From: a virus
Virus record (IMG/VR): IMGVR_UViG_3300029286_001647
Strand: one strand, 5' to 3'
DNA: 43,509 bases
Shown: positions 1,407-35,837 of the stretch, piece by piece
Numbering within the stretch: position 1 is the stretch's first letter
Layout: each line of letters opens with the position of its first letter
The notes under the pieces: model-generated
What the model saw: only the letters and a program-made list of their open reading frames with translations
What the model was told of the DNA's origin: nothing
Database searches by the model: none
Made by a program: the position numbers and the translations under genes

Positions 1407-1417
1407 ATTATACCACA
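1407..1417 (-). promoter_or_regulatory. extended -10-like 'TGGTATAAT' upstream of 1123-1308
   Basis: reverse complement of 'attataccaca'. Confidence 0.25.
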
Positions 1418-2259
1418 ATAAGTTGTGGCTGAAAACGCTTCACTAATTTCTCGTCTAATTCCGCCAAAAAATCTTTACCATACTTTCCGTTTTCTAGGCA
1501 CAGAATGAGGTTTTCTGGTATGTCTTTTTCGTACTCATCGCAATGTGATGCTGCTGACATTGCGATAGCTGCGACTGTATCGACATCTCCGCCGAAATCA
1601 ATACAATTGTAAAGTAGTTCTTGCAATGATTCAGAAGTGACTACTGCCGTGACCGCAGCGTGTACGATGTCCATACCTTTTGACCCTACTTTGCCTTGCC
1701 ACAAATCAAGCCAAGGTCCAGAGGGACCATCTAGTGCCAGATAAACTTGGAGATCATCTTTTGTTCCAAGCTTATTGATGAAGTAGTGAGCCATCATCAT
1801 TGCAATGATTGCCGAGTTAATTCCGTTTTCTGTATTATGGGTGATAGCAGCCTGTATAGTACATAGTTTCTTGGCGGCATCAAGATCTTTGATAAAGCCA
1901 AGAGGCGCAGAGCGCATAGCTGCTCCACCTTTTTCGCTATCAGGCTTTATCTTTTTGAGGAACTCTTTACCAGATTTGATTTCCTGCAAGAAGGCATAAA
2001 AGCGATGAGCATATCCTGTTCTTTGATCTCTCTTAAAGACCTCAACAAACTTGTTGGCAATGATAAGTGGAGTCCACTCTTTCTCGTACAGCATGAGTTC
2101 AGCTATAGCGATACTCATTTGTGTATCGTCTGTATAACGTCCAGGCGCGCCTTTGTGTCTTGGATGATTTATATACATCTTGACTGTATTGAGGTCGAGA
2201 TTATCAGCGAACTCAAAGGCGCTTCCGTAGGCATCAGCTATTCCCATTTCAACTAACAT
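1408..2259 (-). CDS. ADP-ribosylglycohydrolase (ARH/DraG-like)
   Basis: motifs 'ADAYGSAFEF', 'GRYTDDTQMS', 'GGDVDTVAAIAMS' match ARH family signatures; start set at internal ATG (MLVEMGIAD) just past the upstream stop, with an AAGGAAAA ribosome-binding site. Confidence 0.85.
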   Translation of the reverse strand: MLVEMGIADAYGSAFEFADNLDLNTVKMYINHPRHKGAPGRYTDDTQMSIAIAELMLYEKEWTPLIIANKFVEVFKRDQRTGYAHRFYAFLQEIKSGKEFLKKIKPDSEKGGAAMRSAPLGFIKDLDAAKKLCTIQAAITHNTENGINSAIIAMMMAHYFINKLGTKDDLQVYLALDGPSGPWLDLWQGKVGSKGMDIVHAAVTAVVTSESLQELLYNCIDFGGDVDTVAAIAMSAASHCDEYEKDIPENLILCLENGKYGKDFLAELDEKLVKRFQPQLIVV

Positions 2260-2794
2260 TGTTTTCCTTTTCCCAAAAATCAGCACATTTACCACTACAG
2301 AACTTAGCTTCTGGATTTTTATCAATAGTTATATAAGAATCGTTTGCAGTTATCATTTGATTACAATAAGCACAAAAAGAATTACTCTCTTCCCATCTAT
2401 TCGCATGATCTGGGCAACAGAAAACAGCATCAGGATACTTGTTATCAGACGAAAATTGTATTCCTTTTATTACGCAATGACAATAAGAGCATCTTGTTTC
2501 TTCATAGTCTTTTTCATCTATAGTAAGAGTCAGAAGTTCTTTACGAAGCTTTTCTTCTGTCTTCTCTTTTGACTTTATAGCATTTACGAGTTCTGTCACA
2601 TCATCAAAATTAACTTCTACCTCATCAAACTTAGTGATCTCGTCTGCTCTCTGGCTATCTCCCAGAAAAGAGTAGTTCTTATTGATATACAATCCAGCAT
2701 CAGGGACAAATATTTCCTGAATAAGATAAGAACTTCCGTGGATCGCGTCCATAAAACTTTCAGATACTCTTGTCACATATCTTTTCCCCTTCAT
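2249..2794 (-). CDS. protein with two C-terminal FCS/TRASH-type zinc fingers
   Basis: 'CSYCHC...FCCPDH' and 'CAYC...KFCSGKC' match the C-x2-C...F-C-S-x2-C pattern. Confidence 0.5.
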   Translation of the reverse strand: MKGKRYVTRVSESFMDAIHGSSYLIQEIFVPDAGLYINKNYSFLGDSQRADEITKFDEVEVNFDDVTELVNAIKSKEKTEEKLRKELLTLTIDEKDYEETRCSYCHCVIKGIQFSSDNKYPDAVFCCPDHANRWEESNSFCAYCNQMITANDSYITIDKNPEAKFCSGKCADFWEKENNVS

Positions 2795-3743: not shown

Positions 3744-4207
3744 TTGTATTCACCCTCCAAAGCTTTTTGATAGACTTCTGGATCTACGGAGTAGCAAGTA
3801 GATATAACACAATCAACGCCTTCATGATCCGGGAATTCACCTATGCCCAAGAAATCTTTTTTCTTTATCTTGATTGGTATGATAGATATGCTTTTATCCA
3901 TGCTAGGCAAATAGCTACGAAGTTTTTGCGCACTAGCATTATCTAGCAAAGCGTGATAAACACCACCATATATATCAGTTTTGTCGCGCCAGTCTTGGAA
4001 ACATCTAATATATCTAAAACTTTCCCCTTTAGCTATATATGCACTTTGGTATAAAGAAACTAATCCGCTTGGTGAAACCTTTCCAGTATCTTGATTTAAC
4101 GTCTGATATAGACTGAAACAAACCGCTTTGTAGAAGGTCTTTTCTTCTTCGTCTCCCCATTCAGCCAGAAACTTTTCAGTTTTTTCTTTATTGAATACGG
4201 TACACAT
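3728..4207 (-). CDS. MC-family paralog 3 (159 aa)
   Basis: paralogous; C-terminus 'EGEYKCVQS' resembles 'KGKYLCAQS' of paralog 2. Confidence 0.6.
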   Translation of the reverse strand: MCTVFNKEKTEKFLAEWGDEEEKTFYKAVCFSLYQTLNQDTGKVSPSGLVSLYQSAYIAKGESFRYIRCFQDWRDKTDIYGGVYHALLDNASAQKLRSYLPSMDKSISIIPIKIKKKDFLGIGEFPDHEGVDCVISTCYSVDPEVYQKALEGEYKCVQS

Positions 4208-8303: not shown

Positions 8304-8611
8304 TCGTCTTTTTCCTCATCTTTCGGATCGAAAACTTTGTCTTTCATCCAGCCATTTTTCTTGTCATGAGCGTCTTTGCATTGCTTATAGAACTTCTCAT
8401 TGTTAAGTATCATATACAGTAGTGGCAGGATAAGAGGCCATAGGATAATCCATATAATAATAGCCTCTGGTTCGGAAAGAGTACTCTTATTAGGGTCTTG
8501 CAAAGCAAGAAGCTTCTGCATCGCGTCTGGATGCTCCAACATATATTTCTGGAATAAGTCTATACTGGCAATGCCAATAAGAGCGTAGAAAAGTAGGATA
8601 TAAAAAAACAT
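8300..8611 (-). CDS. small membrane protein (103 aa)
   Basis: two hydrophobic segments; ATGA overlap with neighbours. Confidence 0.45.
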   Translation of the reverse strand: MFFYILLFYALIGIASIDLFQKYMLEHPDAMQKLLALQDPNKSTLSEPEAIIIWIILWPLILPLLYMILNNEKFYKQCKDAHDKKNGWMKDKVFDPKDEEKDE

Positions 8612-9207
8612 TACTTAGATTCTCCAAAATGAAAATTGAGACCTTGCATGAACCCACCGAGTCTCAAGAACATAAACACTTTTGCGTCCATCAGGTCTTT
8701 ATCTTTACCGGCGACAAGACCGTAGATGTCATTGGCTGTAGGAATGAATACCTCTATATCCTCCGAAGACTCATTCAGAGAGGTTGAGATTTCTCCCTCT
8801 ACTTCTGCCGCGATAACTACTGCGCATTCGTCTGTGATGCCGGGAGAATTGAACATAGTAGGAGACTCCCACAAAATCTTTGTGATTTCGAGTCCTGTTT
8901 CTTCTTTGATCTCTCTTCGTGCGGCAGACTCAGGAGTTTCATCACCATCAATCAAACCCGCTGGGAACTCTATGACGTAGTCATTGACAGGGACGCGAAA
9001 TTGGCGGATCAGAACTGGTTTGCCTTTGAGAAAAGGAATAACAACGACAGCATCAGGCTTCGTCCTTTTGGCGGGATCTTCGAGACGTGAGGCGAAAATC
9101 CAATTCCCGCGCTTACCGTTATGTTCGTAAGATGACATAAACAGATTGAGGAATCTGTAGGCAGACAACTTCAACGTTTCAATAACTTTCATTTTGCGTC
9201 CTTTCAA
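8611..9207 (-). CDS. Nudix hydrolase, probable ADP-ribose pyrophosphatase
   Basis: perfect Nudix box 'GLIDGDETPESAARREIKEETGL' (G-x5-E-x7-REUxEExGU). Confidence 0.8.
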   Translation of the reverse strand: MKGRKMKVIETLKLSAYRFLNLFMSSYEHNGKRGNWIFASRLEDPAKRTKPDAVVVIPFLKGKPVLIRQFRVPVNDYVIEFPAGLIDGDETPESAARREIKEETGLEITKILWESPTMFNSPGITDECAVVIAAEVEGEISTSLNESSEDIEVFIPTANDIYGLVAGKDKDLMDAKVFMFLRLGGFMQGLNFHFGESK

Positions 9208-19083: not shown

Positions 19084-19429
19084 TACAAAACTTTATTTCC
19101 CTCAAATCTCTTTTGAATACAGCAAACGAAGCTACTGCACCTATAAAAACATACTTTTTCTGTTTCTTCGCCGCTTTCCCCAAACGTAAGAAGTTTCTGC
19201 CTCTCACCTTATAATATGTTTTGTTTCTGATAAAAGAGCAAAGCGTAGAGAAGCTATCACTGTGAGTGGTGCATATCATAAGACCTAATCTAAGAAGTTC
19301 TCTGCAAACGAATATATCTCTATGATCCTTATTTAGAGAATTGCGCTGTGCATTCTTGATAAGATCTTTCATCTTTCGGCGGAAATTGTTAGGATTGTTA
19401 TTGTGCATCATTCGTACCGGCGAAGCCAA
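19040..19429 (-). CDS. hypothetical basic protein (129 aa)
   Basis: ORF track. Confidence 0.4.
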   Translation of the reverse strand: MASPVRMMHNNNPNNFRRKMKDLIKNAQRNSLNKDHRDIFVCRELLRLGLMICTTHSDSFSTLCSFIRNKTYYKVRGRNFLRLGKAAKKQKKYVFIGAVASFAVFKRDLREIKFCNEFVLLGGDANVTS

Positions 19430-19953
19430 CCTTTCTTATCTATATGCCTCACAGATTCCACTCCACGAAACTCCATTAAGTATCTTACCAGATGTTTCAA
19501 ACACTTATCATTTTGCTGTCCCTCAAAACGAGGCACAAAAATGGCATTTCCATAGTTCCTACGGCAATTACTGATCTTATCTTCAACAATAAGCATCTTC
19601 TCAATGTCATAACCCTTTTTCTTCACTTTATTTAGAGGCTTAATAAAGTCAGGGTCCATTGTCTCAGGGTCAAATACTCTTACACATCTATCGAATGCCC
19701 AAACGAATTCAAGTGATTCTTTACCGCCAGGGAAGATGTTTTTAACGATTTCATCGACGTAATCAGGAGAACCGGCTGACCACACGGCTGTCCTGAATGA
19801 CTCACAAACGGTTTTAAGGAAATCGTCTAGTCCGGGGCGCTTAAAGGTATAATAATTGCCTACAATGAAGTCTGGAACGTGTATAAGGGGTTTTCGAGAC
19901 GTGGAGTGGATGAGTGTTTCATCTAAATCAAAAATAACCAAAATCTCATCCAC
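19408..19953 (-). CDS. NIF/FCP1-like HAD phosphatase
   Basis: 'VIFDLDETLIHS' (DxDxT) matches the NLI-interacting-factor-like layout. Confidence 0.7.
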   Translation of the reverse strand: MDEILVIFDLDETLIHSTSRKPLIHVPDFIVGNYYTFKRPGLDDFLKTVCESFRTAVWSAGSPDYVDEIVKNIFPGGKESLEFVWAFDRCVRVFDPETMDPDFIKPLNKVKKKGYDIEKMLIVEDKISNCRRNYGNAIFVPRFEGQQNDKCLKHLVRYLMEFRGVESVRHIDKKGWLRRYE

Positions 19954-20332
19954 TTTGTTTCTCTCGTTTTCTTTTCTCTATAGCACAAACATTTGCATCA
20001 TACATCTTTTGCGCTTGCCTATCTCTAGCAGATCTAATAAAATCATTTGTAAGACCCATCCTATCTTTCAATCGTGTAGATTTCACAAATCTTCTAAATC
20101 CGTTTATCGGCGCATTTATCCAATCAAAATTACTTGGTTTTAGATCCCTACCAAGTCTTTTCTCTATGCAACCAACACATAAAAACCTTACATGACTGAT
20201 TGAGTTCCATAAAGAAAGTTTATTAGAAATACATAATGAACTCCATATATCATAGCGAAGGACAAAACAGTATTCTCTTATGCTTACTACATCAACGCCA
20301 CAATCTTTACATAAGCAAGGATACTCTCTCAT
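19946..20332 (-). CDS. hypothetical Cys-rich protein (128 aa)
   Basis: 'CLCKDCG...CVGC'. Confidence 0.45.
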   Translation of the reverse strand: MREYPCLCKDCGVDVVSIREYCFVLRYDIWSSLCISNKLSLWNSISHVRFLCVGCIEKRLGRDLKPSNFDWINAPINGFRRFVKSTRLKDRMGLTNDFIRSARDRQAQKMYDANVCAIEKRKREKQSG

Positions 20333-20507
20333 CTCATTACTTTCCTATATCTAAGCATTGCTTCATAGATTGCTAGGTTCTCTCCCCATCCGTCTACCGG
20401 CAAACTGCTATCATGTTCAGGAAACAATCTAAAAATATAATTAAACGCTCTTCCCTCAGAAGTCATCTCCAACAATACATTCAAAGATACATTATTAGGA
20501 TAATACA

Positions 20508-20771
20508 TTACTGATTGAATCTTCCGTCAAAAAGATCGTCTTCGTCTTGTATCCTTATATAATCATTTCTAAAATGCCTTGTTATTATCCATCCTTCAAC
20601 AACTTCTCCGTTAGAATAGAAAAGCTTAATCCTCGTGGCATATTCTTTTACTTCAAGGATGTTGACAAAGATTCTCTCGCGAGAATAAAGAACTTCAAAA
20701 CGATCTTCTTTAGACATCAGATCTGTCTTGTAAAGATACTTCCCTTCTCCTGTCCAATAATACCTAATCAT
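20508..20771 (-). CDS. hypothetical protein (87 aa)
   Basis: ORF track. Confidence 0.4.
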   Translation of the reverse strand: MIRYYWTGEGKYLYKTDLMSKEDRFEVLYSRERIFVNILEVKEYATRIKLFYSNGEVVEGWIITRHFRNDYIRIQDEDDLFDGRFNQ

Positions 20772-20774
20772 GTC

Positions 20775-21977
20775 TTACTCTCCCTTAATGACAGCGACAG
20801 GCATAAGCTTGTACAAAATCTTGACAAGATCAGACTGAGAGGTCATAACTTTTTCTATATCCTTGTAAGCGTCTGGAGACTCATCCAAGGTCGCATGAGT
20901 AGGAGTAAACTCAATTCCTTTCATCGACTTCTTGAAAGCTTCCATACCGATAGAAGACTTCGCTTGAGTCCTAGACATAGCGCGTCCAGCTCCGTGAGAG
21001 CAGGAATGGAATGACTTAGGTTGTCCCAATCCCTGAACAATGTAAGACGCAGTTCCCATAGAGCCAGGAATAATCCCAGTTGTCTGATGGCTTGCGAATG
21101 TAGCGCCCTTACGGTGGACAATACAAGTCTCTTTGAAATGGCTTTCAAGAGCTGCATAATTGTGATGGATGTTGATCATCTTTTTCGCAGGAGGCATAGG
21201 AAATCCAAGAGCCTCAAAAACCTCAATAGAGATTTCCATCATGCAGTACCTGTTCATCTCCGCGAAATCCAGACAGAAGTTCATCGCGTCGAAATACTCT
21301 TTCCCCTCATTAGAAGAGAACGGGAGGAAAGACAAAGCCTTCATCTCGACTGGCAAGTTGGTATGCCAAGCCTGATTTCTCTCCCATGATATATTGGAAT
21401 AGGTATCGCAAACAGTCTTGCCGATGTTGCGAGAACCAGAATGGATCATAATCCAAGTATTGCCTTGTTCATCAGTGAGCAAGTTCCAGAAATGATTTCC
21501 GCCGCCGAGAGTGGCAATCTGTTCTCTAACGCATTGGTCGATGTTTACAGGCGCAGTCTTCCAGAAAGACTTACCATCATATTTTCCATGAAGCTTCTCA
21601 ACGCATTTTTCTGACGAAGTAGTTGTCTTCTTAGGATCTCTATGTGCCATGCCGACAGGCATAAGGAACTTGATACGCTTCATAATGTCAGCGATCTTTT
21701 CCTTAACGCTTGTCCAAGTAAGACCAGTATTGAGAGCAACCATTCCGCAGCCGATGTCAGATCCAACAGCCCACGGAGAAATCGCGTCATCCAATGCCCA
21801 AACGCAACCCACCGGAACGCCGAATCCCTGATGGCAATCTGGCATTAGCGCAACGTGATGATAAACAGCAGGATGATTCGCCGCCATAAGCGCCTGTTCA
21901 AGAGCGCCAGGCTCAAGATTATCGCACCACGAAAAGATAGGTACTTTCTGCTTCTCTTTGTCAAAAATTACGTTCAT
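20775..21977 (-). CDS. rtcB: RNA ligase RtcB
   Basis: 'MPDCHQGFGVPVG', 'GSDIGCGM', 'SCSHGAGRAMSR' match RtcB motifs. Confidence 0.9.
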   Translation of the reverse strand: MNVIFDKEKQKVPIFSWCDNLEPGALEQALMAANHPAVYHHVALMPDCHQGFGVPVGCVWALDDAISPWAVGSDIGCGMVALNTGLTWTSVKEKIADIMKRIKFLMPVGMAHRDPKKTTTSSEKCVEKLHGKYDGKSFWKTAPVNIDQCVREQIATLGGGNHFWNLLTDEQGNTWIMIHSGSRNIGKTVCDTYSNISWERNQAWHTNLPVEMKALSFLPFSSNEGKEYFDAMNFCLDFAEMNRYCMMEISIEVFEALGFPMPPAKKMINIHHNYAALESHFKETCIVHRKGATFASHQTTGIIPGSMGTASYIVQGLGQPKSFHSCSHGAGRAMSRTQAKSSIGMEAFKKSMKGIEFTPTHATLDESPDAYKDIEKVMTSQSDLVKILYKLMPVAVIKGE

Positions 21978-25712: not shown

Positions 25713-27023
25713 TTATCCCACAATCTTTCCCTTTTCAACATTTACTTTTTCTCCCTCCGCCAAGCCAAGAACTTTACTATCTAAAATGGCAAAAGGATAA
25801 CTCCCATCGGCATCTTTCCAACGCTGTACCAATACCGCTCCGATATGCACTATCCATCCAACTTTTTCTGAGCATACAGAGCATACAGATGAATTAGAAA
25901 TCTCTACTATGGAACATTGACCAGTGACAGACGAAGAGCATAATTCTCCCATGTTCTTCAATACGGATTGATCTCCAGTTGATGATTGACTGGATTGATA
26001 TCCAGTTGAGGATTGACTGGATTGATCTCCAGTTGATGATTGACTGGATCGATGTCCAGTTGAGGATTGACTGGATCGATATCCAGTTGAGGATTGACTG
26101 GATTGATCTCCAGTTGATGATTGACTGGATCGATGTCCAGTTGAGGATTGACTGGATCGCTCTCCAGTCGATGATTGACTGGATTGATATCCAGTTGATG
26201 ATTGACTGGATTGATATCCAGTTGAGGATTGACTGGATTGATCTCCAGTTGATGATTGACTGGATCGCTCTCCATTCGATGATTGACTGGATTGATATCC
26301 AGTTGATGATTGACTGGATCGATATCCAGTTGAGGATTGACTGGATTGATGTCCAGTTGAGGATTGACTGGATTGATCTCCATTCGATGATTGACTGGAT
26401 TGATATCCAGTTGATGATTGACTGGATCGATATCCAGTTGAGGATTGACTGGATTGATCTCCAGTTGATGATTGACTGGATCGATGTCCAGTTGAGGATT
26501 GACTGGATCGCTCTCCAGTCGATGATTGACTGGATCGATCTCCAGTTGTATACCCATCGTTATTCTTCTTAGAGTCTTCGACAATCCATGCAATTCTTCC
26601 AGATTGTGTAAAATACATAGCAGACGACAATGACCCATTATGAACAACTTCAACAGACTTAGCTTTCACTTTTCCTCCATCGATAGAGACTACATCAGAT
26701 GGAGTAGCAGCAAGCACCAAGAACGGCAAAGTTGCATCTACATCCTTGCCTTCCCCGAGAAACATCCCCCATGGCCAAGCGTGAATCCCATTTCCGCATT
26801 TTGGTTTAGGATCCCAATCTGGACATTCTACAATACCAGACTCAGGCCAAGTAATTACAGGAGCAGTAGTCCCATCTTCCTTATCCATACCGCCTGTAGT
26901 ACGATTTCTCTCGATTTGCTTAACGAGCAAAACCTTTGTTCCATCGTGCGTCCACTGATGGATTGGGATATCAAACACTTTTTCCACATCTTTTACTGGT
27001 TCTTTAATGTCGTTTTCAGCCAT
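25713..27023 (-). CDS. Ser-rich repeat protein (436 aa): N-terminal domain, ~22 copies of the 9-aa repeat 'SSQSSTG(D/Y/H/E)(Q/R)', C-terminal domain
   Basis: encoded by the 27-bp tandem DNA repeat. Confidence 0.65.
   Translation of the reverse strand: MAENDIKEPVKDVEKVFDIPIHQWTHDGTKVLLVKQIERNRTTGGMDKEDGTTAPVITWPESGIVECPDWDPKPKCGNGIHAWPWGMFLGEGKDVDATLPFLVLAATPSDVVSIDGGKVKAKSVEVVHNGSLSSAMYFTQSGRIAWIVEDSKKNNDGYTTGDRSSQSSTGERSSQSSTGHRSSQSSTGDQSSQSSTGYRSSQSSTGYQSSQSSNGDQSSQSSTGHQSSQSSTGYRSSQSSTGYQSSQSSNGERSSQSSTGDQSSQSSTGYQSSQSSTGYQSSQSSTGERSSQSSTGHRSSQSSTGDQSSQSSTGYRSSQSSTGHRSSQSSTGDQSSQSSTGYQSSQSSTGDQSVLKNMGELCSSSVTGQCSIVEISNSSVCSVCSEKVGWIVHIGAVLVQRWKDADGSYPFAILDSKVLGLAEGEKVNVEKGKIVG
25964..26550. 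repeat. tandem 27-bp repeat, ~21-22 copies (plus-strand unit 'ccagttgatgattgactggattgatat')
   Basis: visible directly; patterned variants at 3-4 positions per unit; all six frames open. Confidence 0.9.
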
Positions 27024-28129: not shown

Positions 28130-28873
28130 TCACTCAAATAAATCGATATGGTTCTGTCTGTGGTTCTCTATCCGCTGCTTCGCCATTTCGTAGTACTTAG
28201 GCTCTTTCTCCACAAGCAAATAATCCAATCCCTTAATCTCACAAGCAATACCAGTGGTTGCAGATCCGCACATCGGGTCTAATACAAATCCTTTATCGGG
28301 ACAACCTATATCCAACATACGAGTGATTAGCCATAAAGGTTTCTGATGTGGATGACCGACTCTCTCACTTCCATGAGTAATAGAACTTTTCCAGCAGTTC
28401 CTTAATTGAGTTCCACCATTATGCAACTTAGACTTTTCATAATCAAAGAAGTAGTCTTTAGTCTTTGCTGCCCAAATGATATGTTCACAGCTTTCTATTA
28501 GTCCCTGTCTCGTCACGCTAAAGAAAGCATTATCCTTAAACCATACAATAGAATTGACGATCCAGAAGCCAAAATGCCTTTTAAGCAAGTCGCCAAGGAA
28601 ATAGATGTTATGGAGCGATCCAAAGGCGAAAATGCTTCCTGTGTCCTTCAACAAAGGCACAAGGGTTTCTATATTGGTCTTGTAGGAATCATATTGCTCT
28701 TGAACGGAATTGAATGTATCCCAATCCTCAGCAGACTTCTTCCACTTCTTTTCCTTATGTTCTATTTTGGAATTGCCTATTCCGTATGGAGGATCCCAAA
28801 GAACAAAATCTACTGTATTAGGCTGAACGTGATTGCTCAGGTTCGCCATATCATCATTTATAATTCCGCCCAT
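28130..28873 (-). CDS. DNA methyltransferase, beta-class N6-adenine/N4-cytosine (N6_N4_Mtase family)
   Basis: motif IV 'DPPYG' before motif I 'LDPMCGSATTGIA'; 'HPHQKP'. Confidence 0.85.
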   Translation of the reverse strand: MGGIINDDMANLSNHVQPNTVDFVLWDPPYGIGNSKIEHKEKKWKKSAEDWDTFNSVQEQYDSYKTNIETLVPLLKDTGSIFAFGSLHNIYFLGDLLKRHFGFWIVNSIVWFKDNAFFSVTRQGLIESCEHIIWAAKTKDYFFDYEKSKLHNGGTQLRNCWKSSITHGSERVGHPHQKPLWLITRMLDIGCPDKGFVLDPMCGSATTGIACEIKGLDYLLVEKEPKYYEMAKQRIENHRQNHIDLFE

Positions 28874-28883
28874 ATAACTCCTA

Positions 28884-29624
28884 TTAGCTTATTTCTACAT
28901 CATCAATATAATGATCGAAGCTTTCTTTGTTTATCTCAAACCCACAAGGTCTTCTATTGAGACGCTGAGACACAATCGCTGTCGTAAAGTTCCCTAAGAA
29001 GAAATCACAAACAACATCTTCTTCTTGAGAAGAATAGCTTATGATCTTCTCAATCAATGCTTCTGGAAGTTTGTTCACGTTCTTTACTGCGCCAGGGCAA
29101 TACTCTTTGTTGATCGTCCAAACATCTTCCATATCCTTATAAACCATAGAACGACCTTTATTAGTTCTCGCATCGTCTTGGAACCTACAATTCCTATTGA
29201 AATACGGTTTGGCTTTCTTGCTCTTTTTGCAATACAGAATATGGTAATGTGAGCTGACAAACTTCTTTTTCGTGTAAACTCCAAAGTTGTATTTCCATAT
29301 AATGTGATTGATTACAACAAATCCTGCTTCATTCAGAGCGTTTAGGACATGGTTAAGGTTTGTCCATCCTGAGAAGACATAGAAGCTTCCATTAGGCTTT
29401 AGAACGCGATATGCTTCTTTCATCCATTCTGTAGTGAACCTGTAATAATCTGGAGGCGCTTCTACATATCCAGATATGATGTTATTCGCCTTACGATTAT
29501 AATGTTGCTTATCGAAAGATGTTTCTGATAGACCGAAAGGAGGATCGCAGATCATAAGGTCTACAGATCCATCAGCAATATATTTTTTCGCGCCAGAAAT
29601 GCAATCTTCATTGTATATATTCAT
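28884..29624 (-). CDS. DNA methyltransferase, beta-class N6A/N4C, with degenerate motif I
   Basis: 'MICDPPFG' then 'VVCDFFLGNFTTAIV'. Confidence 0.75.
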   Translation of the reverse strand: MNIYNEDCISGAKKYIADGSVDLMICDPPFGLSETSFDKQHYNRKANNIISGYVEAPPDYYRFTTEWMKEAYRVLKPNGSFYVFSGWTNLNHVLNALNEAGFVVINHIIWKYNFGVYTKKKFVSSHYHILYCKKSKKAKPYFNRNCRFQDDARTNKGRSMVYKDMEDVWTINKEYCPGAVKNVNKLPEALIEKIISYSSQEEDVVCDFFLGNFTTAIVSQRLNRRPCGFEINKESFDHYIDDVEIS

Positions 29625-30118
29625 TTCTTATTGGCGCGCTCCTTAAGGTCTTCTCTGACTTTCGTAATTGCTTCGCCCAGCCAGTTAGTCCCTTGCCAAT
29701 TCTTCCTGTCGTAAATGCGAGGATCATCCTTTGCCATATGTATTCCCCATATAGCATCCGTAGGAGATGCTTCCACTAACAAAGTCCCATCCGTCTCGAC
29801 AAGGCTTTTCATCATATGATCATTTTGAGTGAACTTCGCCATATTGCCTTGATATACAATGTCTTTGGCTACTGCTTGCCATCTCTCTACATCAAAATCT
29901 TTTACCTGCTTACCCAAAGCTTTCTGCTCTCTGGGGTCAGATGTTGACATAATTCGCTCAAGGATTTCATAATCTGCAAACATGACAGCTTTATTTGCCA
30001 TCATCCACTGTTCCGCTGAATTATACTTAACCCCATCAATTACGAAATCGCATCTTGCCCATTGGGAAAAAGGACCACCATAGAAAAACGTAAACTTATC
30101 ATACTTCTCGAAATCCAT
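29621..30118 (-). CDS. NADAR (YbiA/DUF1768) domain protein
   Basis: 'FFYGGPFSQWARCDFVIDGVKYNSAEQWMMANKAVMF' and 'EASPTDAIWGIH' parallel E. coli YbiA (recalled). Confidence 0.75.
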   Translation of the reverse strand: MDFEKYDKFTFFYGGPFSQWARCDFVIDGVKYNSAEQWMMANKAVMFADYEILERIMSTSDPREQKALGKQVKDFDVERWQAVAKDIVYQGNMAKFTQNDHMMKSLVETDGTLLVEASPTDAIWGIHMAKDDPRIYDRKNWQGTNWLGEAITKVREDLKERANKK

Positions 30119-30126
30119 ACTACCTC

Positions 30127-30519
30127 CTATTTCATTGACTTATAAGACTTGAGCATTAGCGCAACTCCCGCCGCAAGCATAATGATCATCAAAATAAAAT
30201 GCGTTGTCTTAATGTTCATGAAGAATTGAATTCTGCTGATAATCTCAATCCCGATAATCCCAAGACCACACCACATCAAGACCCACGCCCAAGTCCAACG
30301 TGCATTATAGAACAAAGCCACTACACCTGCGAAGAAGGGAACAAAAATAATGCCCATAGAAGTGGTATGTCCAGACCCACGAAAACAACCGCTGACCCAT
30401 CCATATCCTCCCGTAGTCACTCGAACAGAATCGAAGAAGAAATAGACTGCCAGCGCAGCCAGAAGGAAACCGATCAGATAAGTTCCAACTCCACCACTTG
30501 TTCCACCGCTACCACGCAT
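30127..30519 (-). CDS. membrane protein (130 aa, 4 TM)
   Basis: hydrophobic throughout. Confidence 0.5.
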   Translation of the reverse strand: MRGSGGTSGGVGTYLIGFLLAALAVYFFFDSVRVTTGGYGWVSGCFRGSGHTTSMGIIFVPFFAGVVALFYNARWTWAWVLMWCGLGIIGIEIISRIQFFMNIKTTHFILMIIMLAAGVALMLKSYKSMK

Positions 30520-30947
30520 TTCTTGTTTTCCTTTTCTTTTGATGGCCAGAAGTATTCAAGATTAGGACCGATGTCCCAATGAAATTGTCCGTAATGGACA
30601 GGATCTTTTCTCAACAGATTACTTTGATGACTTCGATGATAACGATTATCACCTAACCACCAAGGAATAGATACCTTGCCTAAATTAGTTCTCATTTCTT
30701 CAAACTTCGGCAGCAAGCTATCATTGTATCCCCTGCTAATCCATTCACGGCACATATAGATACCATAAACGCAAAGCAGAGGTTCAAAGCCTTTCCATTG
30801 TTTGACAGCAGGATGATTGCGCCAACCTCCGTCATTCAGCAACGTATTGAGTATCTGCCAAGCTTCGACTCGCTGTTTGCCGCATCGCCGATAATCGAGG
30901 CACTTAGCAGTTTCTCTGAACGACATATATGGTAAAAAGGTTTGCAT
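30474..30947 (-). CDS. hypothetical protein (157 aa)
   Basis: ORF track. Confidence 0.5.
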   Translation of the reverse strand: MQTFLPYMSFRETAKCLDYRRCGKQRVEAWQILNTLLNDGGWRNHPAVKQWKGFEPLLCVYGIYMCREWISRGYNDSLLPKFEEMRTNLGKVSIPWWLGDNRYHRSHQSNLLRKDPVHYGQFHWDIGPNLEYFWPSKEKENKKCVVAVEQVVELELI

Positions 30948-30995: not shown

Positions 30996-31976
30996 TCATT
31001 CACCTTTCCGTTTTTCGCGGAAATCGCAAACCCAACATTTATGTGCATAAGAGAATCGTATATTCCCATTCACTCCATCTTCTGTACGATAATCACCGGC
31101 AGATGCGTGATACTTGCACTCTTGCCATAAATGACAAGATTCACTTTTGCAGATTGGAACGCAGCCAGGAACAAATCCATTTGTCACTGCCTTTTGATTC
31201 AAAGAGATATAAGCGTCAACAGGTTCGTAATAAGGCTCTCCGCGGGAGACAAATGAATCTACTCTCGAAAATATGTCTTCTACAATCTGAACTTTGTTAT
31301 TCGATTTATGCCATTCACTCTCCCCAAAATTAGATGGAGGAACAGTATCCAACAGGATAGCACAATGAGTTTTGGCTTCCCTCATCATCTTCTTGTCATT
31401 GACAACTACGAGATTTGCCTGATTTCTCTCCAAAGACTTAAATCCAATCTCAAGAAGCTCATCAAAAGTTCTATTGATTTCGAACTTGAAAGCGACAATA
31501 AAGAAATTAGGGTCTTTATTCCATTCACGGAAATGAGTGATGATCTTTGGATTGAGAACAATCTTTTGCCTCATATACTCAATCAAAGCTTCTGGATCAT
31601 CAGATTTCAGCTTGATACCTTCACCTTCGTCTTTTTTGAAACCGAAGTCAGCAACTGCCATAGCGTGAACAATGGCATCAGCTTTCGGAACAAGAAGCTC
31701 TAGCATTTCAAAAGCGTCTTGTGCAGAATAGACTGTATAGGTCTTAACCTCTCCTCTATAGTAGTTTCTATTCGCAATAGATTCTACAATTGTCCTGCCA
31801 TATTCTATATCCTTAGACCCTGTCGTTTGTACGAAATCAACATCCCATCCCTTTTCGGAGAAGTATGCGGCTGCAATTGCTCCAAGAGCGCCAGACGATA
31901 CGTTTGTGATCAAACGAAAATCGTCTACCTTCTCTTTTGTCCCGCCTGAAGTCACGATTACTTTTTTGTTAGGCAT
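30996..31976 (-). CDS. coaB: phosphopantothenate-cysteine ligase (CoaB domain) with Cys-rich C-terminal extension
   Basis: 'KKVIVTSGGTKEKVDDFRLITNVSSGALGAIAA' matches CoaB/DFP; start set at ATG 31976 with a GGAGAG ribosome-binding site. Confidence 0.8.
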   Translation of the reverse strand: MPNKKVIVTSGGTKEKVDDFRLITNVSSGALGAIAAAYFSEKGWDVDFVQTTGSKDIEYGRTIVESIANRNYYRGEVKTYTVYSAQDAFEMLELLVPKADAIVHAMAVADFGFKKDEGEGIKLKSDDPEALIEYMRQKIVLNPKIITHFREWNKDPNFFIVAFKFEINRTFDELLEIGFKSLERNQANLVVVNDKKMMREAKTHCAILLDTVPPSNFGESEWHKSNNKVQIVEDIFSRVDSFVSRGEPYYEPVDAYISLNQKAVTNGFVPGCVPICKSESCHLWQECKYHASAGDYRTEDGVNGNIRFSYAHKCWVCDFREKRKGE

Positions 31977-31977
31977 T

Positions 31978-32235
31978 TTATCTCTCCGATTCTGGAATCT
32001 TAGGTCTTTCAACCACTTTGCAACCTAGCGCCGTAGCAATTGCAGAAACTATTTCTGAACATTTCTCCAGATGTATTTCTTTGTCGAATTGAGTCTCAAG
32101 GAAATACGGTGTAATCGCATTGATTACATTTCCGTTTAGGTATAGATTAACATGGACGAGTTGCATACGTCCACCTACAACAAGCTTTCTATATTCTTTT
32201 TCGACTATCAAAACATTCTCATCGCTCATAGTCAT
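31978..32235 (-). CDS. hypothetical protein (85 aa)
   Basis: ORF track. Confidence 0.4.
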   Translation of the reverse strand: MTMSDENVLIVEKEYRKLVVGGRMQLVHVNLYLNGNVINAITPYFLETQFDKEIHLEKCSEIVSAIATALGCKVVERPKIPESER

Positions 32236-32794
32236 CTCCTTGCCATTTTAAGGCATTGTTAAGGCGTATAGTAGGATCTAAAAGGTTTTCTGGCTGAGGT
32301 TGATCCAATTCCCATCCTCCCGCCGAGATCTTACCATGTCTGTACAAATGCAAATGCAACATTGATCGTGGTCTACCTTTGTCTTTCTTCAACACTCTCT
32401 TAACATATCCAACCAGATCGCCAGCTAAAACAGGTTCGCCTATTTTAATTGTACGAGATACGTCAATCTCTCCATAAGCGACAACTCCGCTTTCGCCAGC
32501 TATAAGAACAGCTTCCGTATCTTCCCACCAATCGCAACCGGCTTTCTTTCCAGTCCAAGCTTCGATAAGAACAGGAATCCCATCCTCAACTGCGTAAACA
32601 GGAGTTCCTTCAGGGCAATATAAGTCTACTCCTCCGTGAACATCATGTTTTCTCTTCGCACCAAAAGCGCCACAATGTTCTCCAAAAGGGATTTCTACTT
32701 GTTTAGTGATATCGATCTTACGAAATGATTCAGAATCATCCGTTAAATCAAGCACTTCCATTCTAAGAGGGAATTTCCAAAGCGGCATCTTCAT
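32219..32794 (-). CDS. M23/LytM peptidoglycan endopeptidase
   Basis: 'HGGVDLYCPEGTPVYAVEDG' (HxxxD) and 'MLHLHLY' (HxH). Confidence 0.75.
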   Translation of the reverse strand: MKMPLWKFPLRMEVLDLTDDSESFRKIDITKQVEIPFGEHCGAFGAKRKHDVHGGVDLYCPEGTPVYAVEDGIPVLIEAWTGKKAGCDWWEDTEAVLIAGESGVVAYGEIDVSRTIKIGEPVLAGDLVGYVKRVLKKDKGRPRSMLHLHLYRHGKISAGGWELDQPQPENLLDPTIRLNNALKWQGDDYER

Positions 32795-33362
32795 CCTCCA
32801 ATAACTTATTTACAAACTCAACTACTTTTCTTGGTTCTTCTGCTTTACCCTTACCCACATCTCCACAAGCCAGTCTCCCCACTACTGGCTCTATAAAATG
32901 GATAACAGGTCGATGTATATGATTGAGTATATCGGTAAAAGCGAATAACAAAGTCCTCATATTTTTGACATTGATGGGATGCTCATACATCCTCGTGTTG
33001 CAAGCAGGGCAAATAACAATCCTGCACTTATCTAATGGCAAAGCCATAAAAGTAGTAGAAAGCAAATCATCTGCAATCCCATTGGCAAACTTAGCCATAA
33101 TGTTTACAGTCGCAGGATAAACGAGAAATACATCCGCCCAAGTCGCAAGTTCAATATGTTTGATCGAAGTACGTCTTTCCCACATACTTGTATGTACTTC
33201 TCCTCCAGAGACGCTTTCGATTGTCAATGGAGTAATAAACTTTGTGGCATTCTCTGTCATAATAGTCTTAACTTTATGACCAGTCGCCAGTAAGCCAGAG
33301 ATAACGTCACAAGCCTTATAGGCTGCAATCCCGCCAGTAATACCAAGTAGTATGTTTGCCAT
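32763..33362 (-). CDS. coaC: phosphopantothenoylcysteine decarboxylase (CoaC flavoprotein)
   Basis: 'MANILLGITGGIAAYK', 'FITPLTIESVSG', 'ICPACN', 'LACGDVGKGK' parallel E. coli Dfp N-domain; AGGAG ribosome-binding site. Confidence 0.85.
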   Translation of the reverse strand: MANILLGITGGIAAYKACDVISGLLATGHKVKTIMTENATKFITPLTIESVSGGEVHTSMWERRTSIKHIELATWADVFLVYPATVNIMAKFANGIADDLLSTTFMALPLDKCRIVICPACNTRMYEHPINVKNMRTLLFAFTDILNHIHRPVIHFIEPVVGRLACGDVGKGKAEEPRKVVEFVNKLLEDEDAALEIPS

Positions 33363-33366
33363 GTTC

Positions 33367-34422
33367 TTACTCCTGTGATGGAGCGACTGCCCATCCGATT
33401 TCAGGCTCAACAGATACGCTATCTCTTGAGGAGACTCCAAGTAGCCCAGCATAGAAATCATACTTGTATTCTGTCCCAAGGTATTCCCATATAAACGGGA
33501 CTTTGCTGACAGATGATGGAAGCCTATCTGAAGTCAATCCTCCAAATAAATCTGCTGTAATAACATCAATATAAGGATTTCTTGTGAAAGGATCTCCATC
33601 ATTATATTGATTCTCAAGATACGGGAAGAGATTTACCATCCACCCTTTAATATATGGACCTCCGCTCTGGTTCTCTTTATTATAGGCTCTGCTCCAGAAA
33701 GCAGAATTAGCATTCCCTTTCTTAGCCTCGATAAACTCGTCCAAAATCTCCAGCACGGACTTAGTCCACCACCCAAGACCGTATTGTTCCCATTGAGCGA
33801 CTTTCTCTTTCATCTTCTCCCAATCGCCCAATGTCCCGCAGATATAGATGTTTGGAATACCGCACATTGTACACACTCTATATTCAAAATATGCTTTCAT
33901 TGCATCCATCAATACGATCTCACTTGCTGCTTTCTCTACGTTGCCAGTTGTAGAGAAGTCAGCTACGATAAGGCTGTGAGTTTGTTCACCGATATGTTTC
34001 TTAATTTCGGCGGAAAAAAGAGCAAAGTCTTTCTCCCAATCATTATCAGGACTTCCTTTAACAAGGCTATCGTCGCGTACTCTGATTAAAAGCTTACCTT
34101 CGTGAGAAACAAACTTGCTTCTTAGATCTTCTGCATTCATATTGATATGATTAGCAAGACCCTGAGTTAGAGTAATCCACATAACATCAGGCGTGATCCA
34201 CAGGTTATGATGATGATCGAAAGCATATTCAACAGCAGACATAAGGCAATGAAAAGGAGCAGCATTGATGACTTCTACGTTCTTAGAGCAAGCCTCTGGA
34301 CTCACTCCAGAAAGCTTCTTGAAGAAGCTTCCCAGAGCCATACTGCCCTGAGTAGATACTTTCATCTCTGCAACGTTATTCCCCTGGACTTTAGTTGTTT
34401 CCATCATCCCATTGAATCTCAT
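33367..34422 (-). CDS. hypothetical protein (351 aa)
   Basis: ORF track; no family recognised. Confidence 0.55.
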   Translation of the reverse strand: MRFNGMMETTKVQGNNVAEMKVSTQGSMALGSFFKKLSGVSPEACSKNVEVINAAPFHCLMSAVEYAFDHHHNLWITPDVMWITLTQGLANHINMNAEDLRSKFVSHEGKLLIRVRDDSLVKGSPDNDWEKDFALFSAEIKKHIGEQTHSLIVADFSTTGNVEKAASEIVLMDAMKAYFEYRVCTMCGIPNIYICGTLGDWEKMKEKVAQWEQYGLGWWTKSVLEILDEFIEAKKGNANSAFWSRAYNKENQSGGPYIKGWMVNLFPYLENQYNDGDPFTRNPYIDVITADLFGGLTSDRLPSSVSKVPFIWEYLGTEYKYDFYAGLLGVSSRDSVSVEPEIGWAVAPSQE

Positions 34423-34643: not shown

Positions 34644-35738
34644 TTACTTTCTCCCAAACCACCTATTATATATGACATCGTAAACACCATTTCCCCTAAG
34701 TTTCAAAAGTGCGATGTCCACTTTTTTGCGCAAATCACTATCATGGATAGCAAACCCGTAGTATTGAAGGTCAAACATCCAATCCAAAGCCATCACTTTG
34801 CCAGACCCATCTCCATTGGCAAAATACATCACATTGGGAGAATCATAGACAACAATTTCGATGTCGCCATTTACAAGCTTCTTATACGCTTCCTCAATGG
34901 TTTTTACAGTCTTAACCTTTGCGCCAATCTTCTTCAATGCACTAACACTTGTAGTGTTCTCAACAGTATACACTTCTTTCCCGTTCAAATCTGACTGGCA
35001 AGTGATAGCGCCATTCAAACGATCAGAAGTAAAGTCTGCTGCTAATCTCGCAATCAAGTTCGCAAAGAAACCATATCCTAACAAGATAAGCATAATGACA
35101 ATAGCTCTGCCTACCTTCTTTTTAGCTACAACATCTCCAAATCCGACAGTCGAGCTTGTCACTACGGAGAAGTAGATAGCCTTTCCCAGTCCGGGAATAT
35201 ACTTCTTATCGAAATGCTCTGACCCTCTTTCTGCCACCCAAATGAGATGGGCAAAGAATATGATAAAGATGGTATAAGCCATCAGTAATTCGACTACTTC
35301 TGGCTTCACAAACGAGTCTACGAAAAACTTAATAAAACGAAACTTTGCAAGAGATTTCCATTGCATAGCTTCTTTCGATTTGCCTTGAGGGATAAGCACT
35401 CTCAATCCCGAATCGAGATAATGCTGAGAAAAGTTCACTTGCTTTTCGCGATCTTCGTCAATTGTGATGCCGGATATGCCGATGTCTGCTTTGCCAGATG
35501 AGACATTCGGAATAATTTCACCGAAATCTACTACCTGATACTTGTAGGAAAGGTTTAATTCTTTTGCAATAGCCTCCCAAAGGTCTATATCAAACCCGGT
35601 GACCTTATCGCCGTCTACATTGACGCAAGGGGCGAATTCAGACAGATTGACGATTAAAGGCTTTTGTGACCCTTGTGTAGAAGGTTCTGCCGCTAGGCAG
35701 AAAGACGAAATGAATAGAATAGATAAGAGCGATTTCAT
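34644..35738 (-). CDS. GluR0-type ligand-gated K+ channel (substrate-binding-protein lobes S1/S2 split by a 2-TM K+ pore)
   Basis: signal peptide 'MKSLLSILFISSFCLAAEP'; S1 'GFDIDLWEAIAKELNL...GISGITIDEDR'; M1; pore 'YFSVVTSSTVGFGDV'; M2; S2 lobe to C-term. Confidence 0.8.
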   Translation of the reverse strand: MKSLLSILFISSFCLAAEPSTQGSQKPLIVNLSEFAPCVNVDGDKVTGFDIDLWEAIAKELNLSYKYQVVDFGEIIPNVSSGKADIGISGITIDEDREKQVNFSQHYLDSGLRVLIPQGKSKEAMQWKSLAKFRFIKFFVDSFVKPEVVELLMAYTIFIIFFAHLIWVAERGSEHFDKKYIPGLGKAIYFSVVTSSTVGFGDVVAKKKVGRAIVIMLILLGYGFFANLIARLAADFTSDRLNGAITCQSDLNGKEVYTVENTTSVSALKKIGAKVKTVKTIEEAYKKLVNGDIEIVVYDSPNVMYFANGDGSGKVMALDWMFDLQYYGFAIHDSDLRKKVDIALLKLRGNGVYDVIYNRWFGRK

Positions 35739-35837
35739 TGCAGTGAACCTTTCTGTATCATCCAGTAGAGAGTAAAGGGACAATCCGTTATCCCTTTACC
35801 CTCTCTGAATGAAACCCTAACAACGAAACGATTGTGC

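Follow-up and report, generated by a model that had tools for sequence, protein, structure and literature searches.

The window, by which we mean the whole 43.5-kb stretch of DNA analysed, contains a block of five genes that follow one another on the minus strand with gaps of at most 10 nt or with overlaps. In the direction of transcription, the block begins with a gene for a pyrimidine-dimer DNA glycosylase-like protein of the DenV/MSMEG_6728 family (30474..30947, minus strand, 157 aa; PF03013, E 1.1e-18; NF038085, 150 bits against a cutoff of 100). It continues with genes for a small hydrophobic, probably membrane-bound protein (30127..30519, minus strand, 130 aa), a stand-alone NADAR-family ADP-ribosyl N-glycohydrolase (29621..30118, minus strand, 165 aa; PF08719) and two orphan beta-class DNA methyltransferases, MT1 (28884..29624, minus strand, 246 aa) and MT2 (28130..28873, minus strand, 247 aa). 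The hydrophobic protein, defined by its open reading frame and translation, has no match in Pfam, PHROG, NCBIfam or PADLOC; its gene, located between those of the glycosylase and NADAR and 8 nt from the latter, is retained in each of the five copies of the locus from metagenomes. The NADAR reading frame starts with ATG, with AGGAGG 5 nt upstream. At its other end, the plus strand carries TCAT at 29621-29624 (ATGA in coding orientation) and the NADAR stop codon TGA overlaps the ATG of MT1, as the initial annotation had stated; MT2 starts 10 nt past the MT1 stop. The same annotation let NADAR abut the end of the methyltransferase pair. The abutment holds, but in the direction of transcription NADAR lies upstream of the start of the pair. 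A scan for promoter and terminator motifs between 25 and 36 kb gave nothing above shuffled expectation and no enrichment inside the block. Given this result, the ATGA overlap and the small gaps, NADAR, MT1 and MT2 are probably co-expressed.

The window carries 81 genes, all on one strand, with 93% of the sequence coding, and Shine-Dalgarno-like motifs precede 49 of the 81 genes compared to a background of 15%. An origin from a giant eukaryotic virus was considered on account of a vault protein, an iGluR channel, a kinase/PP2C pair and the chlorovirus-like glycosylase and methyltransferases, with MT1 homologues also occurring in GVMAG contigs. We rejected it on the basis of the gene density (81 genes in 43.5 kb), the single-strand orientation and the Shine-Dalgarno enrichment. 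The stretch has the appearance of a fragment of a large phage that carries further ADP-ribose genes. These encode an ADP-ribosylglycohydrolase of the ARH/DraG family (1408..2325, minus strand; PF03747, E 1.8e-29), which is the second ADP-ribose-removing enzyme of the phage and lies 27 kb from the NADAR gene, a NUDIX hydrolase (8611..9207, minus strand; PF00293, E 3.7e-15) as part of this dispersed NAD/ADP-ribose gene set, and a YAcAr SLOG-family protein (13664..14071, minus strand; PF10686, E 7e-10), whose domain class is predicted to bind or process ADP-ribose derivatives (PMC9503650). No cultured relative was found: a blastn search with the 6.5-kb block as query against 50,697 phage records returned a single weak 285-bp match inside a NADAR gene, and a search through the CoaB-like neighbour revealed no relatives in IMG/VR. 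Uncultured phages of 462-735 kb that also have the vault-like protein of the window have only 2-4 genes in common with it when their first 50 kb are compared, and those first 50 kb contain neither NADAR nor the methyltransferase block. Rfam detected no RNA family and ARAGORN no tRNA.

The NADAR domain named in the initial annotation was confirmed by Pfam, where PF08719 matches with an E-value of 7.9e-50 and 169.7 bits (cutoff 35.1) over profile positions 11-163 of 163, and the 165-aa protein shows the NADAR alpha+beta fold, in agreement with the proposed NADAR/YbiA assignment. The predicted catalytic and ADP-ribose-contacting residues are E36, K43, K66, G69, K70, W80, E116, D121 and W124. Seven of them (E36, K43, K66, W80, E116, D121 and W124) correspond to E43, K50, K75, W89, E125, D130 and W133 of the Phytophthora nicotianae enzyme (Pn) and show little or no variation among 28 homologues. 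E36 and K43 do not vary at all, neither in these 28 nor across T4 gp30.3, YbiA, 8BAU, W70 and PaMx28. This pair is the conserved catalytic Glu and phosphate-binding Lys of the family (Pn E43/K50, EcC7 E88/K95, T4 E36/K43), and it aligns with the T4 AdfN residues whose mutation abolishes AdfN function (PMC11257639). By these alignments the protein is a bona fide family member with an intact active site, and its sequence places it in the generic NADAR/YbiA-like group. The enzyme is presumably catalytically competent, and we infer hydrolysis of base-linked ADP-ribose from the behaviour of every tested family member (PMC11125620, PMC12945103). Identical copies occur in five metagenome contigs; the closest non-identical homologue has at most 64% identity.

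The protein also matches TIGR02464 with 147.7 bits (cutoff 73.7), a model that NCBI names a riboflavin-intermediate N-glycosidase. This name, the YbiA-type Glu (E116) at the third catalytic position and the 'GTP cyclohydrolase II' annotation carried by several phage homologues would suit a housekeeping YbiA-type enzyme that destroys reactive intermediates of the riboflavin pathway. We regard such a role as highly improbable: the annotated recurrent neighbours at 86 viral and 80 bacterial loci include no riboflavin gene, none was detected in the window, and both G-ADPr and C-ADPr are substrates of E. coli YbiA, too (PMC11125620, PMC12945103). RibA-fusion homologues are the probable source of the 'GTP cyclohydrolase' labels, and this stand-alone 165-aa protein shows neither a fusion nor an operon link to RibA or RibD.

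Both methyltransferases of the initial annotation were likewise recovered as beta-class enzymes. MT1 and MT2 match PF01555 (N6_N4_Mtase) with E-values of 4.5e-40 and 1.6e-36, respectively, and have the beta-class order of an N-terminal DPPF/DPPY motif and a C-terminal AdoMet motif. In MT1, motif IV (DPPF) spans residues 27-30 and motif I lies near residue 205; in MT2, motif IV is DPPY and motif I lies near residue 199. The two proteins have 20% identity to each other (BLASTP). MT1 matches the PADLOC model MTase_II PDLC03296 (286.7 bits), and its best PDB matches are CcrM 6PBD (E 4e-22) and M.BceJIV 8URK (PMC11380664); MT2 matches CcrM 6PBD with an E-value of 1.9e-31 and has no close relative in IMG/VR. 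Compared to the canonical FxGxG of motif I, MT2 reads DPMCGSATT and MT1 reads DFFLGNFTT, with Phe replacing the second Gly. We considered whether MT1 might be a decayed pseudo-enzyme and rejected this: DFF[LM]GNFTT is kept in most of ~20 close viral homologues, with conservation across identities of 48-63%, and the GNF motif is thus read from these alignments as a trait of a virus-borne MT1 subfamily. No cognate restriction endonuclease lies beside MT1 and MT2, where the flanking reading frames are NADAR, a 56-aa frame and a 159-aa frame with only a sub-threshold zinc-ribbon match; we therefore treat both enzymes as orphans. This would fit anti-restriction self-methylation, the role initially assigned to them. 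Since all strong solved relatives are m6A enzymes, the predicted specificity leans toward N6A over N4C. GATC and GANTC are not avoided in the phage sequence, and the adenine-free GGCC is tenfold depleted. MT1 and MT2 resemble CcrM, M.BceJIV and phage-borne relatives in the PF01555 core, the DPP[YF] motif, the circularly permuted beta order and the lack of a detected restriction partner. Unlike CcrM (366 aa), both proteins (~247 aa) lack the CcrM C-terminal domain, and MT1 differs from the CcrM/M.BceJIV group as a member of a virus-borne subfamily with GNF instead of GxG in motif I.

The juxtaposition had been interpreted as a DNA-protection cassette of NADAR, MT1 and MT2. The ATGA overlap and the tight packing do suggest co-expression, and with the glycosylase the block comprises four consecutive DNA-acting enzymes. 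In a stronger form of this proposal, NADAR would be adapted to DNA methylated by its neighbours, for which there is precedent in a phage NADAR that favours its own modified DNA: T4 AdfN appears to be tuned to hydroxymethylated T-even DNA (PMC11257639). The comparative data did not bear the proposal out. A PF01555-type methyltransferase lies within 6 kb of NADAR in none of 81 other viral loci, and only one of 80 bacterial loci has a match, a weak one; the contigs of the three closest NADAR homologues contain none. Conversely, none of 22 loci with MT1 homologues has NADAR within 5 kb, and the annotated recurrent neighbour families of the NADAR clade include no methyltransferase. In one further viral contig (L111), an MT1 homologue is preceded upstream by a homologue of the glycosylase. 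Overlapping stop and start codons are, moreover, the norm in this 93%-coding genome, and with 2 methyltransferase genes among ~81 we estimate the chance of a given gene flanking the pair at ~2-3%. The NADAR and PF01555 domain assignments lie far beyond chance, whereas the NADAR-methyltransferase adjacency does not. Because this adjacency was seen in no relative, we do not describe a new cassette and judge a true one to be improbable; the juxtaposition is probably a lineage-specific grouping, within an accessory region, of counter-defence genes that are independent of one another. We give still less credence to the idea that NADAR, through translational coupling to the two methyltransferases, might be tuned to the m6A-methylated DNA of its own phage, with glycosylase, NADAR and methyltransferases forming a co-adapted 'modify and de-ADP-ribosylate' module, and that NADAR might also remove cytidine-ADP-ribose. 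The latter activity might follow from membership in the generic NADAR/YbiA-like group, as cytidine-ADPr is removed by proteins from the NADAR family and the YbiA family and not by T4 AdfN (PMC12945103). If true, it would point to a so far undescribed defence in which the host attaches ADP-ribose to cytosines of the phage DNA.

The recurrent neighbours of the NADAR clade are NAMPT, Macro, Nudix, Sir2, PARG and MuF-ART fusions. NAMPT, Macro, a 330-aa Nudix protein or Sir2 occur within 4 kb in 25 of 67 dereplicated viral groups, with NAMPT directly adjacent to NADAR in 11 groups and Macro in 11. PRPP synthetase recurs in 13 loci, and microbial PARG lies immediately downstream of NADAR in 15 of 80 bacterial loci. 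The conserved partners of the clade are NAD+/ADP-ribose enzymes, and they fit a role on NAD+/ADP-ribose small molecules at least as well as DNA repair. Together with the ARH, Nudix and YAcAr SLOG genes of the window, these counts speak for an activity mainly on soluble NAD+/ADP-ribose derivatives (immune signals, toxins or by-products on the way to NAD+ rebuilding) instead of one on ADP-ribosylated DNA; on grounds of genomic context, Iyer et al. have argued that ADP-ribose derivatives of low molecular weight are, for the most part, the targets of the NADAR, Macro, SLOG and Nudix proteins of phages (PMC9503650). The biochemistry speaks against it, however. For every NADAR assayed, base-linked ADP-ribose on a nucleic acid is a substrate (PMC11125620, PMC11833690, PMC12945103), the phage NADARs tested all counter DarTG1 (PMC11257639), and the cited NADAR literature reports no soluble ADP-ribose-derived substrate, the only small molecules being riboflavin intermediates cleaved by YbiA. 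Within the window, no NAD-salvage gene adjoins NADAR. We therefore consider a mainly soluble substrate rather unlikely. The recurrence of the clade in islands of NAD+ salvage and ADP-ribose processing (NAMPT-NADAR-Macro, Sir2, Nudix, PARG, MuF-ART) is the more informative by-product of this analysis, and, given this context, the physiological substrates may be either soluble ADP-ribose derivatives or modified nucleic acids, or belong to both classes.

The MuF-ART fusions bear on another alternative, in which NADAR serves as antidote or regulator for an ADP-ribosyltransferase of the phage itself, such as a virion-packaged toxin, and shields phage nucleic acid from it. NADAR lies near a fusion of a MuF-like head protein with an ART domain (PF03496/PF01129) in 13 related loci of PaMx28/Xp12-like siphophages, Iyer et al. 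have described that ARTs are often packaged into virions along with NADAR and Macro proteins (PMC9503650), and the ART YarT has a YbiA-type NADAR as its antitoxin (PMC11125620). We nevertheless hold this to be very unlikely, as no ART domain was detected in the scanned reading frames of the 43.5 kb, a result to be read in view of a genome that is probably much larger and of ARTs that are hard to detect by sequence.

We favour, as somewhat more probable than its negation, a catalytically competent stand-alone NADAR of a large tailed phage that reverses modification by host ADP-ribosyltransferases, with the methyltransferases acting independently and not as part of a cassette. During infection, NADAR would act on DNA or RNA of the phage and cleave the N-glycosidic bond that links ADP-ribose to a base, namely guanine and possibly also cytosine. 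This would undo the modification introduced by a host ADP-ribosyltransferase toxin such as DarT1 and allow replication to proceed. MT1 and MT2, most likely N6-adenine enzymes with different targets, would independently pre-methylate phage DNA against restriction.

The de-ADP-ribosylation against DarT-type defence put forward initially is therefore plausible, in view of the intact active site and of family members that reverse DarT1 modification, but it is not new. Phage NADARs of several clades, including AdfN, NADAR-Bas32 and NADAR-Bas60, have been shown in published experiments to undo the guanine ADP-ribosylation by DarT1 and to protect phages against DarTG1 (PMC11257639; PMC11543638; PMC11125620), the anti-DarT1 role having been demonstrated in 2024 (PMC11257639). 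Guanine-ADP-ribose is hydrolysed by every NADAR tested, in all four families (PMC11125620; PMC12945103), and the share of medium and jumbo phages with NADARs is reported as about 48% (PMC9503650). Despite their activity in vitro, E. coli YbiA and T4 gp30.3 do not rescue DarT1 toxicity in uninfected cells (PMC11125620; PMC11257639), so an intact active site does not guarantee anti-DarT function in vivo. If the favoured reading is correct, the phage is one more uncultured large freshwater-type phage with an orphan NADAR counter-defence gene and ordinary anti-restriction methyltransferases, which makes the result a useful annotation without conceptual advance.

Among known systems, DarG1 (E. coli C7; G. 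lovleyi, 8BAT) and the protein described here fall into one superfamily with the same predicted guanine de-ADP-ribosylation, EcC7 K115 being equivalent to K66. At the Pn E125 position, however, our protein lacks the catalytic Asp of DarG1 (EcC7 D171), it shows no close similarity to DarG1 structures, and no DarT1 toxin gene lies beside it: its neighbours encode the membrane protein and a methyltransferase, and no DarT/ART domain was found in the window reading frames scanned. E. coli YbiA (PDB 2B3W; TIGR02464) is 28% identical and differs in context, as our NADAR has no riboflavin or LexA/dinG operon surroundings and the neighbours of its clade are ADP-ribose enzymes. T4 AdfN (gp30.3) shares the fold, the E36/K43 catalytic pair and the status of an orphan antitoxin-like counter-defence gene (PMC11257639). 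It has only 24% identity, carries the T4-type His (LKHS) where our protein has Glu116 (PMC11543638) and, unlike our protein, does not match the PADLOC NADAR model; our protein has no His at the Pn E125 position and does not cluster with gp30.3. The P. nicotianae NADAR (PDB 8BAU; Schuller et al. 2023, PMC11543638) is eukaryotic and has no phage context. All of its ADP-ribose-binding and -cleaving residues are present in our protein, with differences at R79 (K70), R93 (A84, with K85 adjacent) and D86 (V77). The closest functional parallel is with the non-T4-type NADAR-Bas60 (Vequintavirinae) and NADAR-Bas32, which rescue phages from DarTG1 and neutralise DarT1 (Johannesman, Carlson & LeRoux, PMC11257639). 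Identity to these is only about one third and the genomic neighbours differ. Gp174 of the Vequintavirinae phage W70, which we infer to be the orthologue of the tested NADAR-Bas60, is 32-35% identical to our protein and has E36, K43, the VEASPxDxIWG motif and the PADLOC model PDC-M42C in common with it. Like NADAR-Bas60 and NADAR-Bas32, the protein described here is an orphan, stand-alone NADAR of a large lytic phage with no adjacent toxin.

The gene at 29621..30118 (-) encodes a protein of 165 aa, with an ATG five bases after AGGAGG, and lies in a window where 81 non-overlapping ORFs, on the minus strand only, cover 93% of the sequence. Its proposed NADAR domain was borne out: PF08719 (Pfam NADAR) matches over essentially the full profile length (E = 7.9e-50), the TIGR02464 score exceeds the curated cutoff, and PHROG 1017 is also matched. 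The two neighbouring methyltransferases reported in the initial annotation were likewise recovered as PF01555 (N6_N4_Mtase) proteins, MT1 (28884..29624, -; E = 4.5e-40) and MT2 (28130..28873, -; E = 1.6e-36), the latter starting 10 nt past MT1. The claimed ATGA overlap is present: plus-strand bases 29621-29624 are TCAT, which places the NADAR stop codon TGA over the MT1 ATG when read on the coding strand. In the direction of transcription, the NADAR gene precedes the first methyltransferase and does not, as had been described, adjoin the end of the pair. Two further genes are packed just as tightly upstream of the NADAR gene, one for a pyrimidine-dimer glycosylase-like protein (PF03013; MSMEG_6728 family) and one for a hydrophobic protein of 130 aa that has no family. 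The GC content of this block is unremarkable, and the NADAR locus recurs in identical form on five contigs of metagenomes drawn from three data sources.

MT1 and MT2 share only 20% identity and therefore do not stem from a recent duplication; judged from their sequences, their targets presumably differ. The closest solved relatives of both are all N6-adenine enzymes, namely CcrM, M.BceJIV (8URK; GTWWAC), M.MboIIA, the 'DpnA' adenine methyltransferase (5HEK/5HFJ) and M.RsrI, while N4-cytosine enzymes match MT1 at an E-value of about 1e-4 only; DPP[FY] is present in both proteins. Motif I of MT1 is unusual (DFFLGNFTT) and is kept in most of about 20 close viral homologues, which makes it a subfamily trait: members of this subfamily (loci L091-L111), found on diverse viral contigs, two giant-virus MAG contigs among them, carry DFF[LM]GNFTT in contrast to the canonical FxGxG AdoMet motif. 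At one of these loci (L111), a pyrimidine-dimer glycosylase homologue precedes the MT1 homologue, the same as in the window. No nuclease partner of MT1 or MT2 was detected with Pfam or PADLOC. Over the window as a whole, a Markov model predicts 74.5 GGCC sites where only 7 occur, a roughly tenfold deficit; CATG, CTAG and GTAC fall about twofold short, GGCGCC, CGATCG and GTCGAC do not occur, and GATC and GANTC show no strong depletion. These crude statistics are suggestive only and fit adenine methylation guarding some sites while others are avoided; the scarcity of GGCC suggests that a host restriction enzyme resembling HaeIII exerts selection. In the favoured reading, the two proteins are independent orphan methyltransferases of m6A type and are probably expressed together with the NADAR.

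The three genes had been taken together as a DNA-protection cassette acting against restriction and DarT. Using phmmer with MT1 and MT2 as queries, we searched 6 kb to either side of the NADAR gene at 85 IMG/VR loci (NADARs 42-61% identical to that of the window) and detected a methyltransferase only in copies of the window itself; the contigs that carry the NADAR's three closest database homologues had none, and 80 bacterial genome loci gave one marginal match. Nor did a NADAR lie near MT1 homologues at 22 IMG/VR loci (29-63% identity, mostly 47-63%). Since the search cross-detects unrelated PF01555 genes, such as three tandem methyltransferases at one of the fetched loci (L096), it is reasonably sensitive. 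Being nearly absent from the fetched viral, bacterial and MT1 loci, the adjacency is peculiar to the window phage, and it is compatible with chance placement of two methyltransferase genes among 81 within an accessory region. A functional cassette is therefore not upheld, and we consider true co-adaptation of the NADAR and the adjacent methyltransferases improbable; their adjacency is more probably lineage-specific.

Shine-Dalgarno-like motifs before 49 of the 81 genes (against a 15% background), together with gene density and single-strand orientation, mark the window as bacteriophage, and its many unusual accessory genes suggest that it is part of a large or jumbo phage genome. Genes for capsid or terminase are absent from the window, and the phage records, IMG/VR and large uncultured phages compared yielded no close relative. 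A 758-aa vault-like protein (14965-17241, -; major-vault-protein shoulder PF11978, E = 7e-28, plus a Vault_3 repeat) has relatives in the phage collection only in the uncultured 462-735 kb phages LR756500/501/503 (43-44% identity). Synteny with these is limited to the vault-like gene and a 70-aa neighbour, LR756500 adding CoaB-like and ARH homologues; there, the CoaB homologue adjoins the vault-like gene. In the window, the CoaB-like phosphopantothenate-cysteine ligase (30996-32012, -), which has an extra Cys-rich C-terminal extension of ~115 aa, is separated from a CoaC-like flavoprotein decarboxylase (32763-33479, -) by an M23 peptidase (32219-32794, -) and an unannotated 85-aa ORF; such a split coenzyme A-type pair is unusual for a phage. 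Further genes encode a GluR0/iGluR-type ligand-gated potassium channel (34644-35783, -; PF00497, PF10613, PF07885) whose Ion_trans_2 pore splits the solute-binding domain, PspA/IM30 (35838-36518), DUF4419 (33367-34422), a eukaryote-like signalling trio of Ser/Thr protein kinase-like protein, PP2C phosphatase and VWA-domain protein (39732-43112, -), and three tandem paralogues of ~160 aa (2797-4207, -; mutual identity 29-34%; no family). A 27-bp tandem repeat (25965-26548; 21.6 copies, 89% match) codes for the nonapeptide STGxxSSQS in a 436-aa protein (25713-27023, -) with weak tail-fibre PHROG matches. The genes for RtcB RNA ligase (E = 2e-102) and a NIF/CTD-like phosphatase are close together (19408-21977, -); Iyer et al. 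tied this kind of RNA-repair function to NADAR and Macro domains (PMC9503650). CYTH and RNase T genes are also present.

The NAD/ADP-ribose genes of the window, encoding an ARH-family ADP-ribosylglycohydrolase (1408-2325, -), a NUDIX hydrolase (8611-9207, -) and a YAcAr SLOG protein (13664-14071, -), are dispersed and not clustered with the NADAR gene. Across the clade, we clustered all ORFs within 4 kb of NADAR and counted the families over 67 groups, obtained by dereplicating the loci at 90% NADAR identity. NAMPT recurs in 21 groups (directly adjacent in 11), a Macro domain in 16 (11), a 330-aa Nudix protein in 11 (2), Sir2 in 11 (0) and an AAA ATPase in 9 (2), with PRPP synthetase at 13 loci. 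About 20 IMG/VR groups resemble the island AAA - Nudix (330 aa) - NAMPT - NADAR - Macro ... Sir2 (L037, 1647-10457), whose NAMPT and Nudix genes, in our reading, resemble an NAD+-salvage gene set with NADAR and Macro inserted between. Among the bacterial loci, a microbial PARG is the most frequent companion: it directly follows NADAR in 15 of 80 (e.g., L135, 5464-6411), in Paenibacillus and other bacteria. These conserved neighbours favour the main rival explanation, that the NADAR processes soluble NAD+/ADP-ribose derivatives, which Iyer et al., arguing from context, saw as the target of most phage NADAR, Macro, SLOG and Nudix proteins (PMC9503650); for the window protein we regard this as possible, if doubtful. 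At 13 loci of PaMx28/Xp12-like phages (e.g., L015, 7693-11301), a fusion of a MuF head protein with an ADP-ribosyltransferase domain also recurs near NADAR; that the NADAR is an antidote to a phage-encoded ART seems very unlikely. The annotated recurrent families include no riboflavin gene, DarT gene or methyltransferase.

In phmmer searches of PDB sequences, the window NADAR matches only E. coli YbiA (2B3W; E = 1e-6) and, more strongly, the P. nicotianae NADAR in complex with ADP-ribose (8BAU; E = 4e-13). Its AlphaFold2 model, built from 28 homologues (mean pLDDT 97.4), matches both in Foldseek at TM 0.79, with no other significant match. By phmmer alignment to 8BAU, with residue roles according to Schuller et al. 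(PMC11543638), P. nicotianae E43, K50, K75, G78, R79, W89, E125, D130 and W133 correspond to E36, K43, K66, G69, K70, W80, E116, D121 and W124, respectively, all invariant or nearly so in the 28 homologues (52-64% identity). E36, K43, G69 and W80 remain invariant when T4 gp30.3, E. coli YbiA, the W70 NADAR and the PaMx28 YbiA-like protein are included. We give hardly any credence to a riboflavin-type YbiA function.

All four recognised NADAR families are able to hydrolyse guanine-ADP-ribose, on DNA as well as RNA (PMC11125620; PMC12945103). Johannesman et al. reported that T4 AdfN (gp30.3), whose counter-defence requires E36 and K43, and the NADARs of Bas32 (T5-like) and Bas60 (Vequintavirinae), unrelated to T4 AdfN, restore phage growth in DarTG1 hosts, the latter two also neutralising DarT1 in uninfected cells (PMC11257639). 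NADAR homologues moreover occur in 726 of 50,697 phage-collection records, mostly from large myoviruses and from jumbo or mega phages. Both the presence of a NADAR in a large phage and its anti-DarT reading are thus established ideas. On balance, we think it probable that the window encodes a stand-alone, active NADAR that strips base-linked ADP-ribose from phage nucleic acid; this removal would counter DarT1-like toxins. The third catalytic residue of the window protein is Glu, which the generic NADAR and YbiA families share, in contrast to Asp in the DarG1 type and His in the T4 'phage NADAR' type (PMC11543638). It matches none of the PADLOC DarG models; it matches the generic NADAR model PDC-M42C (143.7 bits), as does the protein of the Vequintavirinae phage W70, whereas T4 gp30.3 does not.
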